The notes under the pieces: generated by a model | Told to the model about the DNA's origin: nothing | The model's input: the letters and a program-made list of their open reading frames with translations, nothing else | The model's database searches: none | Assembly (NCBI GenBank): GCA_033763315.1 | Contig: JANRKS010000028.1 | Coordinates: 154,240-218,239 of the forward strand | Direction of reading: 5' to 3' | Source: Deltaproteobacteria bacterium | GTDB taxonomy: Bacteria > Myxococcota_A > Polyangia > Fen-1088 | Length of the DNA: 64,000 nucleotides | Part shown: one piece after another, positions 58,347 to 64,000 of the stretch | Position numbering within the stretch: position 1 is the stretch's first letter | Layout of the letters: each line of letters opens with the position of its first letter | Translations under genes and position numbers: made by a program

Positions 58347-58988
58347 TTATGGTGAGAAACCGCCACCACAAACGGTTTCGGGCGCTTGGCTATAGTGATC
58401 GTCAACGAATTTGTTGAGCACTTTGAGCGCCTCCGCGTCTAAACAATCCGCAGTGAACGTCCATCCCCAAGCGGCCGCGGCCACCTTCGTGGCAAGCGCT
58501 GCATCGGGTGTAATGATGAAGCGTTTGTTTGGGCAATCGCGTTCCCCTTTGAAGCCCTGCACGAGCGACGCGAACGCGGATTTCACGTCGCTGCATCCGC
58601 TAGGGCAATTGTGAAGCAACACAACGGCGCCATGCTCAAGGTTGTGAATGTAGTTGCAGCGGGGCAATGCAGGAGCGTCGAACGTTGTGTAGGCGCCCCA
58701 CGTTCCGCAATGTGGGCCAGATGAAGGCGGGTTGGAGTTGTAGATGGCGGGGTCATACGAAGACGCGGCAATGTGAATGCCGCCTTGATCCGCATGCTGC
58801 ATAACGCGCGCGTTGCAAGCACCTGCCGCGATGACGTCGGGCGTGGTGTCCCCACTGGCAGCCTCTTGCGACTGAGCATCGGAGGCGTTTGGTGTGGCGG
58901 CATCCTGGCCACCTTCATCAACCTCAGAGTCGCTGCACGCCACCCACACGAATAAACAAGCGATAAGCATAGGCTTCATGCGCGTCAT
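58347..58988 (-). CDS. DUF3105-family lipoprotein
   Basis: WVAC lipobox, YNSNPPSSGPH, HNLEHGAVV, AAAW, APE; ATGA overlap with the upstream gene. Confidence 0.82.
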   Translation of the reverse strand: MTRMKPMLIACLFVWVACSDSEVDEGGQDAATPNASDAQSQEAASGDTTPDVIAAGACNARVMQHADQGGIHIAASSYDPAIYNSNPPSSGPHCGTWGAYTTFDAPALPRCNYIHNLEHGAVVLLHNCPSGCSDVKSAFASLVQGFKGERDCPNKRFIITPDAALATKVAAAAWGWTFTADCLDAEALKVLNKFVDDHYSQAPETVCGGGFSP

Positions 58989-59632
58989 GATCGGGTTCCC
59001 TGGGCACAAATGCAAGCCGCACGTGCACAGCGGACAGGCCACCACAAAAGCGCGAGCGCCAGAACGACAGGCCACACAAACCGATTGGCTGGCGGTAGCA
59101 CCAGCACTTCGTGCCCGGCCATCAACAGCCATCGTGGTCCGGGGGACAGGACGAAGATTGTGGCCAAACGTTCGGCAAAAACGTTGGCGATGGCAATGTA
59201 GAGCAGGCCCAGGCTTGTCAGCAGCGACAGGGGGGCACCGAGGAGCAGCGCGCGTCGCTTGGCCCGCCAATGGACGGGCGCGGTCAAAGCCACGGCGCCC
59301 AGCAAGGCGAGCGGTATATGCACATCGCGCCTCACGCTGATGCCGAACAGCAGCTCGCCCCGCGTGGCATTGACGGTGACTTGCACAACGGTGTCGGTGG
59401 CAACGGCCTCTTTCACGAGGCGCTCGCTGTCGCTTGCCGGCCGCAGACGCGCGTGGCCTCGCTCGCCGAAGCTCACGCGGTCAAGGATTTGATTCGCCAG
59501 GGCTGCATAGGACACGGAAACAAGATGGCCCAGACCGGGCCAAGGTGCGGCCAGCAAGACCAAGATCAAACTGGCGCGAACAACCCACTTTAAGATTTGT
59601 GGTGAACTAGGTGCGGGCAAGGGAAGGCTCAT
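58985..59632 (-). CDS. Exosortase-associated membrane protein
   Basis: About 4 TM helices; PLALLGAVALTAPVHWRAK parallels the neighbouring exosortase; overlaps the exosortase 3' end. Confidence 0.65.
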   Translation of the reverse strand: MSLPLPAPSSPQILKWVVRASLILVLLAAPWPGLGHLVSVSYAALANQILDRVSFGERGHARLRPASDSERLVKEAVATDTVVQVTVNATRGELLFGISVRRDVHIPLALLGAVALTAPVHWRAKRRALLLGAPLSLLTSLGLLYIAIANVFAERLATIFVLSPGPRWLLMAGHEVLVLPPANRFVWPVVLALALLWWPVRCARAACICAQGTRS

Positions 59633-60158
59633 GCCGAGGGCGCGCGCTGGCCCACGCGGCCCATAAGGCAAACAACGCGATAGAGAGTACGACCAAAATC
59701 ACCTGAAGCACCTCCTCGTGAATGAAGTTGAACGAAGCAGGTGCATAAACGCCCACAAAATAAAGCGCGCCGATGCGCAAAACATTGAAGGCGAAAATGA
59801 TTATGCAACCAACCGCAGCCCCCATCACCCGCTTCCGCCACGCCGCCGGGTAAACGAAAACCGCAGCGACAAACAAGGCTTGGGCATCGAGCGCGGCACA
59901 GTCCAAAACGATTCGAAGGGGGAAAGAGCCTCCAATGTCGTGGCCGTCAACAGTGGCTGCGCCATCAAAAATACGGATGAGGGCGCCAGACACCTGGGCC
60001 ACTTGTTGCAGGTACCAGGTCAGCAGCCGCAAACGAAGGCCGCCGGGCGCCGCGGGCAAGAAGATCAACGCATAAAGCGCGCCTGCCAGCGGCACGCCCC
60101 AGACGATTGACCGCCAGCGCGGCCTTAGGCTTTTCGAGATTTGTGGCTGACCCAACAC
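59607..60158 (-). CDS. Exosortase/archaeosortase family protein (XrtH-like)
   Basis: Catalytic triad pattern Cys (IVLDCAA), Arg (FNVLRI), His (FIHEE); YPAAWRKR. Start approximate (GTG 60158). Confidence 0.82.
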   Translation of the reverse strand: MLGQPQISKSLRPRWRSIVWGVPLAGALYALIFLPAAPGGLRLRLLTWYLQQVAQVSGALIRIFDGAATVDGHDIGGSFPLRIVLDCAALDAQALFVAAVFVYPAAWRKRVMGAAVGCIIIFAFNVLRIGALYFVGVYAPASFNFIHEEVLQVILVVLSIALFALWAAWASARPRHEPSLART

Positions 60159-61831
60159 AACAACCCCGCAAGCAGAATTGCGGCTCCGGACGATAGGGCA
60201 GGCACACTCCTGGGTGCGGCGTCGATGGTTCCCGGAAGGGTAACGCCGGCCGCTGATCCCGGGTTTGGCAAGCCCAGTCGCCAAACGCCGTTGGGATCTT
60301 GCAGTTCCACGCCATTGCTGCGGCCATCTTTATCAGAATCAAGCGCTGCCAAGGCCGCGTTCCAGACAACATTGCCCGCGGGCCCATCGAGAAAGTGATC
60401 CTCTATGTCTTGTCCGAACAAGTTGCGGGGGCCGCCCGGATAGATGTGGCAATTGTCGCAGCTCTTGATGCTGCCGTTGGGTATCTGATCAACCCGGAAA
60501 GGACGTGCCTGAGCCAACGTAGGCACGCACAGGACAGCCGCCACAATGATTATGCCTCTGCGTCTTGCATATTGTGACCTTCGACGGTGTGCGAGCGCGA
60601 GCAGGAGGAAGGCCACGCCAAGCAATGCGCCATTGCGCGCGCCGAGCGCGGGCACAGACGCGGGGGGCGGTGCATCTGAAGCGAGTTTGACCAAAGCATT
60701 GCCAAACATTGCGTAGAGCTCACCTTGGTTGTCTTCACCAAACGAGGTGAGGGAGTTGCCGCCATCAAACAAGAGTGTGGACGTCCATGTTCCAGCCCCC
60801 GTTGGCGCCAAAGTCCACACGCGGCCACTGCAGTAGTCACCGTAGATGTACTTGCCAACCAGCTCTGGAACTTTTGATCCGCGGTAAAAGTACCCTCCCG
60901 TCACCGAACAGTCGCCCGTGCTGCCATGTGGATACACAGCGACGGGCGGCGTGAACGCAGGAGCGTTGCAGCCAGGCGTAGAAGATGGGCACGCCGACGA
61001 TTCGTTGCACGCGTTGCCCTCCATAATTTTCCAGCCGAAGTTGAGCGCCCCCGAAGCGTTGGCGGGCACATAGTTGACCTCTTCCCACAATCCCTGGCCA
61101 ACATCACCGATCCACAGATCGTTGGTTTGGCGATCGAACGAGAAGCGCCAAGGGTTGCGCAAGCCAAAAGACCACACTTCATCGGGCACTTCATTTAGGG
61201 GATCGCGCGCGCCAACATAAGGGTTGTCACTGGGAATGCCGTAGTAAGGGGCGACGTCAAAATTTTGCCTCACGTTCAGGCGAAGCATCTTGCCGAGCAG
61301 GGTGGATTTTGTTTGTGAGCGGCAACCTGGATCTTGTTGGCCACCGCCGTCGCCCATCCCGATGTAAAGATGGCCGTCGCTTTTGCGGACTTGCAGTTGC
61401 CCGCCATTGTGGTTGGCGAACGGCTGCGGGATGACCATCATGATTTTGCCACTTGAGGCCACGGCCACATTCGGATCCGAACTCACCAAATAGCGTTCAA
61501 TCACGGTGTTGCCGGCGGTGTTGGTGTAGTTGACGTAGAACGCCTTCGTCGCCGCAAAGTCGGGGTGAAACGCAAGCGACAACAAACCTTGCTCGGGCCC
61601 TAAACTGACTTTGCTGCTGATGTCGAGAAACGGCGTGCTGCGGACCGAGCCGTCGATCACGCGAATGAAGCCACCTTTTTCGATAACAAACAGCCGCTGA
61701 TCGCCGGGCACCCCCGAACCTGCGAGGTAAATCGGGTTGTTGATGGTGGCCACGGGCACAACGATAACCGCCGCATGGGCGGATCCAACGGTGAGGGCCA
61801 CGAGCCCCGCAAGCAATGCGCGAAAGAACAT
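60125..61831 (-). CDS. Glucose/sorbosone dehydrogenase-family beta-propeller with two VPAL-CTERM sorting signals and a second heme-motif domain
   Basis: EQGLLSLAFHP, NHNGGQL, YIGMGDGG, LGKMLR, GLRNPWRFSFD, SFGED; VPAL+TM+basic tail at aa 393 and aa 543; CDNCH. Confidence 0.85.
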   Translation of the reverse strand: MFFRALLAGLVALTVGSAHAAVIVVPVATINNPIYLAGSGVPGDQRLFVIEKGGFIRVIDGSVRSTPFLDISSKVSLGPEQGLLSLAFHPDFAATKAFYVNYTNTAGNTVIERYLVSSDPNVAVASSGKIMMVIPQPFANHNGGQLQVRKSDGHLYIGMGDGGGQQDPGCRSQTKSTLLGKMLRLNVRQNFDVAPYYGIPSDNPYVGARDPLNEVPDEVWSFGLRNPWRFSFDRQTNDLWIGDVGQGLWEEVNYVPANASGALNFGWKIMEGNACNESSACPSSTPGCNAPAFTPPVAVYPHGSTGDCSVTGGYFYRGSKVPELVGKYIYGDYCSGRVWTLAPTGAGTWTSTLLFDGGNSLTSFGEDNQGELYAMFGNALVKLASDAPPPASVPALGARNGALLGVAFLLLALAHRRRSQYARRRGIIIVAAVLCVPTLAQARPFRVDQIPNGSIKSCDNCHIYPGGPRNLFGQDIEDHFLDGPAGNVVWNAALAALDSDKDGRSNGVELQDPNGVWRLGLPNPGSAAGVTLPGTIDAAPRSVPALSSGAAILLAGLLCWVSHKSRKA

Positions 61832-61952: not shown

Positions 61953-62693
61953 TTAGAAGTATTGAATCTCTTGAGCAAAAAGTTGTTTCGCCTGAACTTC
62001 GTCGGCTTCGATGTCTTCTGCGTAAATCACGTTCGCCCGAACCGAGGGTTGATCGATGTCGGCGGCACCCTTGGCCATCTCATATCGCTTTTCTTGTTTT
62101 GATTCGCTCATCTCGCCGATGCGCGCCACGCCGAGTTTGATTTGCTTTGTGTAAATCACATCGGCGACCAACAGTTTGGTTTTGATCACCTTCGCCATCA
62201 GGGTGATGTTTGGGATGCTTGGTGTGGCACCACCGGTACCCGGCACGCTTACGGAGGATGAGCCGCCGCTGCCCATCATCCCGCCCGCCGCAGTTCCACC
62301 GGTTCCTCCCAGCCCGAACCCAGCGCTTCCGCCGACCCCAGAGCCAGCGTTTCCGCCCGCGCCCGCCATCGACACCTCGGGCATGGGGCCGCCCCCTGCA
62401 CCACCATTTGTTGTTGGACCAGGAGGGATCCCTGCCCCGCCGGCGCCGCCGGAACTCCCGAGCGTGCCCCCCGCCGCTGGTAAAGCGTTCGGGTCAAGGC
62501 TGCTGTCGTCGTCGGGCGTGGCTAAGGCGGCGCCGCGGCCTTTGTTGACGCGTGAGCCCTCTTCAAAGCCTGGGCCGTCAGCCGAGCCTTTCGTTTGTTC
62601 GTCAGCTCCGGCGCCCGCGCCATCGGAGCACGCCGCCAGTGCCCCCAAATAGCCGGCTGCGATCACCCAAACACACGTTTTTTTCTTGGTCAT
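61953..62693 (-). CDS. Hypothetical Gly-rich lipoprotein
   Basis: LAAC lipobox, Gly-rich linker, repetitive beta-strand C-terminus (VADVIY, VRANVIYA). Confidence 0.7.
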   Translation of the reverse strand: MTKKKTCVWVIAAGYLGALAACSDGAGAGADEQTKGSADGPGFEEGSRVNKGRGAALATPDDDSSLDPNALPAAGGTLGSSGGAGGAGIPPGPTTNGGAGGGPMPEVSMAGAGGNAGSGVGGSAGFGLGGTGGTAAGGMMGSGGSSSVSVPGTGGATPSIPNITLMAKVIKTKLLVADVIYTKQIKLGVARIGEMSESKQEKRYEMAKGAADIDQPSVRANVIYAEDIEADEVQAKQLFAQEIQYF

Positions 62694-62861
62694 GACGACG
62701 CCTTCCGGGCTGATAGGTATCAAGCGCCATGCCAGCTTGGTTCGTGCACGAGCCCCCGCGAAACCCCGCGCGCTCACCACCGGGCAGCACGCCACAGGAT
62801 CGGACGTCCGCTCAGTGGTACGAACCGGGAACGCCCTACGTCGTGACGAAGAGAGAGCCGT

Positions 62862-63480
62862 CTAGTAAGGAAAGCCTGGCACGTTCAGTTTGATCTCGTG
62901 CAAGCGGCCGCTGCCGGTGATGTACAGCGTTTTGCGGTCAGGGCCGCCAAAGGCTGCGTTGGAAGTGGAGTTGCCTTCCACCGTGATGGTCCCACGAGCC
63001 GTGTTGTCCGGCCCAATGACATGTACACCCGTGCCGCTTGTGACGTAGAGATTGCCCGCACAATCCACTGCGAGGCCATCGGTGAAGGAACCAACGTTGC
63101 TGCCAAAGGTCATGGGGGCACCGTTAAGCGATCCATCAGCCTTAAGCCCCACCTTGCGAATCTGACCTGACATGTCACCGACATACAGCGTGTTTTGATC
63201 GGGCGACAAAGCCACGCCGTTTGGCTGGCTTCCCGCAAATAGCCGAGTGATCGTCCCATCTGGCGCGCGCCTGTAATAAAAGGCGCCCGTTTGCCCAGGG
63301 CGGTTGCCCTGCTGCCACGTGGGATCGCTGAAGTAAATGTTGCCGTCCATGCGTACGGTGAGGTCGTTCACCGAATTGAATGGCGCGTCCAGATACTTCG
63401 ATGGCCCCTGCAATGCGGTTCGCGCCTTGGTCTCGATGTTGAACTTCGCCATCCACTGCACCTCGTGAGCGGCCGCGCGT
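62862..63480 (-). pseudogene. 5'-truncated SMP-30/gluconolactonase family gene
   Basis: FNSVNDL...DGNIYFSDP, PNGVALSPD, DGLAVD..GNLY and SNAAFGG are present, but the N-terminal EGP/NGL blades are absent; a divergent recombinase gene lies immediately upstream. Confidence 0.7.
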
Positions 63481-63505
63481 GCGACGTGACGTGCGATAGG
63501 ACGCC

Positions 63506-64000
63506 ATGCGCGATGAGAAGCAACCAGACACGGCCGGGATATCGTCGGAATGTGAGGGCGCACGCCTGCGCGCCGTGCAGTACCTGCGCATGTCGACGGA
63601 CAACCAGTCCTATTCGCTGCTCAATCAGGCGAGCGCCATCGCACGCTACGCCGAGGCGCGCGCCATCGACATCGTGGAGACCTTTGAGGACGCCGGACGA
63701 AGCGGGCTCACCTTCGCCACGCGTCCGGGGCTCATGCGGCTCATCGCGCGGGTGCAATCGGGAACACTCGCCGCTCACTGCGTGCTCGTCTACGACGTCA
63801 GCCGATGGGGGCGCTTCCAGGATGTGGATGAAAGCGCTCACCTGGAGTTCATCTGTCGCAGCGCCGGCGTCGAGGTCGTCTACTGCGCGGAGCCTTTTGC
63901 GGAAGCCGACGTGCAAACGGCAGCCGTGATCAAGGCGCTGAAGCGGATCATGGCAGCCGAATACAGTCGCGAGTTGTCGCGCAAGGTCTGGCTCGGGCAG
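63506..64000 (+). CDS. Large serine recombinase, partial (runs off the right edge)
   Basis: Not in the ORF track. Manual translation: MRDEK...AVQYLRMSTDNQSYS...FEDAGRSG...RPGL...YDVSRWGRFQDVDES...MAAEYSRELSRKV. AGGA SD upstream. Confidence 0.92.
   Translation, partial: MRDEKQPDTAGISSECEGARLRAVQYLRMSTDNQSYSLLNQASAIARYAEARAIDIVETFEDAGRSGLTFATRPGLMRLIARVQSGTLAAHCVLVYDVSRWGRFQDVDESAHLEFICRSAGVEVVYCAEPFAEADVQTAAVIKALKRIMAAEYSRELSRKVWLGQ

Follow-up and report, generated by a model that had tools for sequence, protein, structure and literature searches.

The 64,000-nucleotide window considered here (contig JANRKS010000028.1, positions 154,240 to 218,239 of the forward strand, assembly GCA_033763315.1, a Deltaproteobacteria bacterium of the GTDB lineage Myxococcota_A; Polyangia; Fen-1088) contains one uninterrupted open reading frame (ORF), P0001, in which two exported domains and two exosortase-type sorting signals are joined. 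The frame begins with ATG and encodes 568 amino acids, as read from the ORF list and the translation. It consists of an N-terminal signal peptide, a β-propeller of the glucose/sorbosone dehydrogenase (GSDH) family, a sorting signal, a predicted internal signal peptide, a Temptin_C domain with a CxxCH motif, and a closing sorting signal (Table 1), and the gene of a small exosortase overlaps its 3' end. P0001 is, on balance, probably a genuine fused gene that encodes a precursor of two cargoes for this neighbouring exosortase. The same junction, in which a sorting signal runs directly into a signal peptide, recurs in other proteins, some of them encoded beside homologous exosortases.

Architecture of P0001 and its sorting signals

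Pfam recognises both globular domains: GSDH (PF07995) scores 124.7 bits (cut-off 25) over positions 11-321 of a 332-position profile, and Temptin_C (PF24784) scores 39.4 bits (cut-off 27) over positions 8-97 of a 98-position profile. The GSDH part is a member of the fold family that lies outside the glucose/sorbosone dehydrogenases dependent on pyrroloquinoline quinone (PQQ) described by TIGR03606, for which it reaches 30.8 bits against a cut-off of 434.55. Hydropathy reveals four hydrophobic segments (residues 1-20, about 401-414, about 426-440 and about 547-560), which alternate with basic clusters. This predicted pattern is consistent with the alternating topology proposed in the initial annotation, whose architecture and coordinates all agree with the ORF list, Pfam, hydropathy and translation.

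At the junction of the two halves, the predicted internal signal peptide reads RRR, a 14-residue core and AQA, in agreement with homologs. A small residue occupies position -1 before an R-x-x-R motif in all 13 aligned Temptin_C homologs, and AQA followed by RPFRV is identical in P0001 and the standalone homolog P0134. The junction contains no in-frame ATG, as previously noted: none follows Met375 in P0001, and the in-frame GTG (codons 430 and 436) and TTG (codon 439) all lie within the hydrophobic core of the internal signal peptide. A regular expression combining motif, helix, basic cluster and second hydrophobic stretch was run over the ORFs of at least 200 amino acids in the whole genome and gave six matches, among which, on inspection, only the one in P0001 is credible as a sorting signal with a signal peptide after it. 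The layout thus exceeds chance. The base composition of the locus is that of the genome.

Table 1. Positions in the window of the elements of P0001 and of the two genes downstream of it (aa, amino acid residues of P0001).
Feature	Position	Strand	Basis or remark
Whole fused ORF P0001	60125..61831	-	568 codons
N-terminal signal peptide, aa 1-20, ends AHA then AVIV	61772..61831	-	Hydropathy; homologs start alike
GSDH domain (glucose/sorbosone dehydrogenase, PQQ-type β-propeller), aa 43-374	60710..61705	-	Pfam PF07995
Internal sorting motif VPAL, aa 393-396	60644..60655	-	Read from sequence, hydropathy
Membrane helix of internal sorting signal, aa 401-414	60590..60631	-	Kyte-Doolittle peak 2.2
HRRR, aa 415-418; SQYA, aa 419-422; RRR, aa 423-425		-	Read from translation
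Basic loop HRRRSQYARRR, aa 415-425, predicted cytoplasmic	60557..60589	-	Positive-inside rule
Tyr421 codon TAT, aligned with stop codon of closest GSDH relative P0005	60569..60571	-	
Predicted core of the internal signal peptide, with AQA cleavage-type site, aa 426-442	60506..60556	-	Kyte-Doolittle peak 2.59
AQA, aa 440-442	60506..60514	-	RPFRV next (predicted mature end)
Temptin_C domain, aa 447-534	60230..60493	-	Pfam PF24784
CDNCH (CxxCH), aa 458-462	60446..60460	-	Read from sequence
Terminal sorting motif VPAL, aa 543-546	60194..60205	-	Standalone homologs with VPAL/VPGL tails
Terminal membrane helix and basic tail SHKSRKA, aa 547-568, then stop	60128..60193	-	Translation, hydropathy
XrtH-like exosortase	59607..60160 (ORF open from 60284)	-	TIGR04178, TIGR04177
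Multi-helix membrane protein	58985..59671	-	Downstream of exosortase

The source genome is a binned assembly of 7.6 Mb in 40 contigs, 90.85% complete and with 4.1% contamination. All its ORF ends were scanned with a loose tail pattern, and credible tails were then picked by inspection. Three of the 35 matching ORFs carry such a tail, namely P0001 and two on contig C5, a 412-residue protein with a thrombospondin type 3 (TSP3) repeat and an HExxH motif, and a 674-residue S8 peptidase. Including the internal copy of P0001 there are four S/A-VPA-L/T signals, attached to the unrelated GSDH, Temptin_C, TSP3-repeat protein and S8 peptidase, and each of the four tagged domains is preceded by a signal peptide. 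The signals share one layout, in which a short stretch separates S/A-VPA-L/T from a helix of 14-16 residues, and a basic cluster (HRRR, KSRK, RGRR or RRRR) comes after the helix.

In its accessible part, a description of tripartite sorting signals (10.1101/2023.06.07.544157) requires a signature motif, a hydrophobic helix and a basic cluster of 2-5 residues, and several signals per genome on otherwise unrelated proteins with N-terminal signal peptides; it places the signals close to the C-terminus. As far as that text goes, the genome shows both the succession of motif, helix and basic cluster and the presence on several unrelated proteins. The terminal VPAL copy also has the described position, with the chain ending 7 residues after the helix, whereas the internal copy, 150 residues before the C-terminus, does not. 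Neither tail of P0001 matches the IPTL-CTERM models (TIGR04174 and PF18203, E up to 10), and the initial assignment to "IPTL/VPxL-CTERM" signals was to this extent overstated. The top family for residues 385-443 is NF033207, which bears the name "midcut-by-XrtH" and has no member in the genome.

The exosortase is encoded by the ORF 59607..60284 on the minus strand, which overlaps the 3' end of the P0001 gene as the initial annotation had stated. It scores 47.3 bits on the exosortase/archaeosortase signature TIGR04178 (cut-off 23; 48.9 bits in the genome search), and this is the single match to the signature that a profile search found in the whole genome. Among 13 exosortase models XrtH (TIGR04177) is the best for this ORF. 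Translation likely starts at a GTG or TTG near 60160, a position inferred from the homolog in locus L129, so that the gene would overlap the end of its substrate gene. Of the other genomes sampled, 11 of 46 from the bacterial family have homologs of the exosortase, against none of 254 from other families of the class. One related genome, G228, has four paralogs of the small exosortase (loci L118, L125, L127 and L128), as against one in the genome of the window. In loci L134 (5517-6074) and L135 (5495-6052), which come from two related genomes, a conserved ORF of 185 amino acids stands immediately upstream of the exosortase homolog and ends in APA, a helix and RRR; it may be a dedicated single cargo.

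Relatives of the two halves and recurrence of the junction

P0001 is the only one of the 120 best matches to the full-length protein that carries both Pfam domains. The closest GSDH relative, P0005 (69% identical, 422 amino acids), is unfused and ends in ...RRSRQ* at the position of Tyr421, where P0001 reads ...RRRSQ-Y. Because P0005 stops exactly there, the joined form would have arisen by fusion, or else the form of P0005 by fission. A recent fusion by loss of a stop codon had been offered as an alternative in the initial annotation; the position fits, since the Tyr421 codon TAT is aligned with the end of P0005, but, with no start codon left for the second protein, the fusion does not have the look of a purely recent event.

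A pattern search of the 119 other relatives listed found 15 that end in a sorting tail of this type and two that continue beyond it. One of these two is P0008 (65% identical in GSDH), where the sorting signal leads into a signal peptide of the lipoprotein type and then a Cys-rich domain. P0129, a 304-residue fragment from a JGI metagenome, is collinear with residues 296-548 of P0001 in one block at 43% identity. It comprises, in order, the end of a GSDH domain, VAVPTG with a helix and RARARAT, a signal peptide beginning MPHW and closing with AAA, a Temptin_C domain starting with RPFRV, and VPGL with a helix and KSR. Because of this collinear alignment, the continuous frame is common to two sequences that differ at more than half of their positions.

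Homologs of the GSDH part were found in 98 of the 301 genomes sampled from the class, at no more than 52% identity, and the 29 best loci that were checked are mostly without a sorting tail. For the Temptin_C half, 1486 relatives were found at E up to 0.001. Among the 150 listed, the domain is nearly always located directly after an N-terminal signal peptide, and the standalone homolog P0123 (61% identical, 153 amino acids) has its own VPAL-type tail. A protein search with residues 385-568 returned the query alone, its candidate list being filled by low-complexity words. A search with residues 441-540 among proteins of 312-994 amino acids gave 19 matches at E up to 1e-5 including the query, and besides the query only P0273 also contains GSDH, in reversed order.

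A search for other proteins with an internal sorting signal and signal peptide, which the initial annotation had recommended, found them in P0129 and P0008 and in G012, G326, G218 and G317, four related genomes of the same bacterial family. In G012 (locus L131), a lipoprotein-like module closes with VPTVPVP, a helix and RRAR, after which come a lipobox signal peptide and a paralog of the module; the gene is divergent from, and adjoins, that of a homologous exosortase. G218 (locus L138) encodes a 447-residue protein with epidermal growth factor (EGF) repeats directly upstream of a homologous exosortase, and residues 62-110 of this protein read IPTLSQWG, a helix, KHLRWHR and a second helix. This internal IPTL-CTERM signal scores 26.5 bits on TIGR04174 (cut-off 20.5) and 30.1 bits on PF18203 (cut-off 20.8), and the protein reaches 38 bits on NF033207, under the cut-off of 45. 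A family-wide search with NF033207 gave sub-threshold matches in 4 of 80 other genomes and none above the cut-off. One of the four, in G317 (locus L177), is an ortholog of the G218 protein with the same IPTLSQWG layout, and another, in G326 (locus L179), is an RCC1-like protein whose chain continues after SVPAT, a helix and RRR with a lipobox signal peptide and further sequence. Together with P0001, P0129 and P0008, a sorting signal running into a signal peptide is found in six kinds of protein. An assembly error could explain one such case, but would not explain the whole pattern.

The Temptin_C domain of P0001 looks undecayed, because it keeps all 7 invariant positions of a 102-sequence family alignment; the 20 nearly invariant positions are kept as well. 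The Cys, Cys and His of CxxCH are invariant in all 102 sequences, and a DxDxDG-type loop is invariant or nearly so. The AlphaFold model has a core predicted local distance difference test (pLDDT) value of about 97, and the nearest Atlas clusters of this part are Temptin_C. The initial annotation proposed a possible heme acceptor. The invariance of the CxxCH motif favours this proposal, but the same 102 sequences contain no invariant Met or second His that could act as second axial ligand, and no match in the PDB was obtained by sequence, Foldseek or VIA-align wide. Cytochrome c assembly genes are present in the genome. The heme-acceptor role stays a guess because no second axial ligand is conserved, and the domain may equally contain a metal site. 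Bacterial Temptin_C is a widespread N-terminal module placed before varied passengers, among them type IX secretion system (T9SS) sorting domains, EGF-like repeats, GSDH and exosortase tails. The literature matches listed for temptin are all from animals, mostly molluscs.

A functional tie between Temptin_C and GSDH is supported by direct fusions of the two domains in relatives. Proteins consisting of a signal peptide, Temptin_C and GSDH are encoded in G011 (locus L002, 1480-3309, 609 amino acids), which belongs to the same family, and in L038 (3013-4416), and are also represented by P0273 and P0137. These direct fusions have about 610-620 amino acids, are without sorting signals, and show the reverse of the domain order in the window. 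A complex prediction for GSDH and Temptin_C gave a score of 0.00 and, run without controls, weighs neither way. Likewise, a search of the genome for PqqC returned no match and is uninformative, since its control also matched nowhere.

Proposed processing route and competing explanations

On the route that these features suggest, the N-terminal signal peptide would send the GSDH propeller across the inner membrane until the first sorting signal (VPAL, helix and HRRR) halts the transfer. The loop HRRRSQYARRR would remain cytoplasmic, as would the last basic tail, and the next hydrophobic stretch would serve as an internal signal peptide that restarts export with the Temptin_C domain. The second sorting signal would anchor the end of the chain, leaving both globular domains outside the inner membrane. 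Cleavage by signal peptidase I would follow AQA442, and the XrtH-like exosortase would cleave at each VPAL motif or close to it. Through these cleavages the dehydrogenase and a small CxxCH protein would be produced in a ratio of 1:1, and the membrane would retain a hairpin of two helices, about 46 residues long.

This arrangement would have consequences for the evolution of the gene. As no usable start codon remains, the alternatives being inside the hydrophobic core, the second domain would be exportable only as part of the precursor. Because both ends of the linker would be removable, the mature products would be the same as those of two genes; fusion and fission would then be nearly neutral, which could account for the persistence and the recurrence of such fusions. 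A broader proposal can be made only tentatively, and may well claim too much: that a sorting signal joined to a signal peptide constitutes a self-removing hairpin with which bacteria can join and separate exosortase-cargo genes cheaply, that the small XrtH-like exosortases of the family routinely cut mid-chain, and that a PQQ-type dehydrogenase and a CxxCH mini-protein of a new kind are delivered 1:1 as an enzyme and its electron or metal partner.

Several observations weigh against a precursor of two cargoes. No experiment on mid-chain cleavage by an exosortase was found in the searchable literature, and the matches listed there for XrtH and for midcut-by-XrtH include no relevant paper. The exosortase scores 71.5 bits on TIGR04177, under the cut-off of 86, which makes the designation "XrtH-type" in the initial annotation too strong, and residues 385-443 reach 13.6 bits on NF033207 (E 0.052), under its cut-off of 45. 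The joined state is not uniform among close relatives, P0005 being unfused, and the order GSDH then Temptin_C is found in P0001 and P0129 only. Among the related Temptin_C loci retrieved with a 5-row alignment, 79 from species representatives and 30 from metagenomes, none has GSDH upstream of Temptin_C, and genomes of the same genus are without the locus. P0129 and P0008 are single sequences on short contigs (1152 and 4788 nucleotides, respectively), and the tails of P0016 and P0017 look frameshifted, errors being common in such metagenome data. In four public read runs, no read or contig (at 85% likeness) extends over 60128-60582, so that the junction rests on one assembly. Finally, an out-of-frame ATG at the junction (caaTATGca), preceded by GAAGG, fits the loss of one base at an old start codon, either real or by assembly error. 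The best of the read runs contained 0.14 and 0.12 of the sampled words, near-identical fragments cover parts of 60770-61669, and none of the runs listed was of RNA.

Part of this evidence is what would be expected of two ordinary adjacent genes whose joining reflects either an assembly error or a very recent mutation, in which a base was lost at the ATG or a stop codon became TAT. The end of P0005 exactly at the Tyr421 position, the out-of-frame ATG after GAAGG, the junction without read support in an incomplete bin, and the metagenome relatives with apparent frameshifts all point in this direction; a real mutation might leave the second protein poorly expressed and the joined state short-lived. 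However, by reasoning through the possible ancestors, no single substitution, insertion or deletion gives a canonical pair of genes in which a stop codon follows Gln420 and an in-frame start precedes RRR, and no homopolymer at the junction exceeds 2 bases. Furthermore, the same continuous frame exists in P0129 at 43% identity, four or five related genomes have the same kind of junction in other proteins, and the Temptin_C part is fully intact, which leaves this explanation rather improbable. As a gauge of assembly errors rpoC was sought, and gave no match in this incomplete genome. The second protein might instead be started at one of the internal non-ATG codons (GTG 430 or 436, TTG 439), the read-through chain being a by-product. 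AGAGG is indeed present 10 bases before the GTG of codon 430, but a start there would give a leader of 13 residues without a charged N-region, compared with 22-30 residues in the standalone homologs, and the RRR-GIII sequence would be wasted. As there is no stop codon, the full chain would be made regardless, and an internal start is very improbable as an account of the locus.

It is also conceivable, if unlikely, that the fusion is real and the hairpin is never cut. It would then form a membrane-embedded linker holding both domains side by side outside the inner membrane, and the exosortase would act on the terminal signal only or on neither. The relatives that join Temptin_C and GSDH directly speak for this, in that keeping both together would be the selected state, and so does the definition of exosortase signals as lying near the C-terminus (10.1101/2023.06.07.544157); an extended cytoplasmic side may not be tolerated. 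Three features argue for cleavage. The AXA site is unchanged before the conserved mature end RPFRV, the internal motif is of the same S/A-VPA-L/T type as the three terminal tails of the genome, and both the family name "midcut-by-XrtH" and the NF033207 relative adjoining a homologous exosortase point to cutting in mid-chain.

Neighbouring genes, known systems and significance

The multi-helix membrane protein encoded downstream of the exosortase has no Pfam or NCBIfam match. It is 36% identical over 180 amino acids (E 3e-27) to the N-terminal part of P0016, and shows no significant similarity (E 0.85) to its positional counterpart in locus L131. P0016 (710 amino acids, on an ENA contig of 504962 nucleotides) consists of the membrane-protein homolog followed in frame by a signal peptide and a GSDH relative, which connects membrane protein and dehydrogenase in a second lineage; the sorting tail of this GSDH relative looks frameshifted. 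A DUF3105 protein (PF11303, 74.2 bits; 58347-59270, minus strand), with a lipoprotein-like internal start, closes the same-strand row after the membrane protein.

The second gene upstream of P0001, on the same strand, is an ORF resembling SMP-30/gluconolactonase (62862-63563, PF08450, 87 bits). It covers only profile positions 66-244 of 246 and looks N-terminally shortened; its start is overlapped by an ORF (63506-64000, plus strand) that by eye resembles a serine recombinase and runs off the end of the contig. A lactonase beside an aldose dehydrogenase would suit a pathway of sugar oxidation. Between the lactonase-like gene and P0001 lies an ORF of 280 amino acids (61953-62795, minus strand) with a lipoprotein-like start and runs of Gly-Gly-Ala/Ser, for which neither Pfam nor NCBIfam gave a match. 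By tblastn, GSDH, Temptin_C, the downstream membrane protein and DUF3105 were all absent from 12 exosortase loci of related genomes, and no exosortase homolog was detected in the 109 Temptin_C loci.

The nearest known system is that of NF033207, XrtH and IPTL-CTERM, as read from the name of the family and from locus L138. The two have in common a sorting signal inside the chain, a second hydrophobic helix that follows at once, and a gene located beside a small XrtH-like exosortase. By contrast, the motif in P0001 is VPAL and not IPTLxxWG, a full enzyme of 370 residues precedes the signal in place of a leader of about 30 residues, and the part after the internal signal ends in a second sorting signal. 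These differences, together with the independent functional tie of the cargo domains, are what is distinctive here. The locus falls short of the numeric thresholds for XrtH (the exosortase) and for IPTL-CTERM and NF033207 (P0001), and would thus resemble that system in its working while standing outside it. Cutting in mid-chain by a small exosortase, as the name of NF033207 implies, already exists in curation.

Two further comparisons are instructive. As far as the accessible account extends, the tripartite PEP-CTERM/exosortase signals of Haft and colleagues likewise combine a motif, a helix and an Arg-rich cluster, and serve unrelated cargo through one sorting enzyme, but one of the two signals in P0001 is 150 residues away from the C-terminus. 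The direct fusions of Temptin_C and GSDH unite the same two domains in one exported chain; unlike P0001, they lack sorting signals and carry the domains in the opposite order behind a single signal peptide, with a soluble linker of about 30 residues.

Exosortase signals are annotated as C-terminal features. If they are also cut in mid-chain, many genes for surface proteins that appear "fused" or "too long" would be precursors of several proteins, and pipelines that read C-termini only would miss cargo. The process would be a bacterial counterpart of the viral polyproteins that are processed at membranes. The locus offers a compact test case, with one small exosortase, one precursor, two small products that can be tagged and one enzyme that can be assayed. 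To our knowledge, the natural electron acceptors of GSDH-type dehydrogenases are largely unknown, and the widespread Temptin_C domain emerges as a likely working partner of these enzymes.

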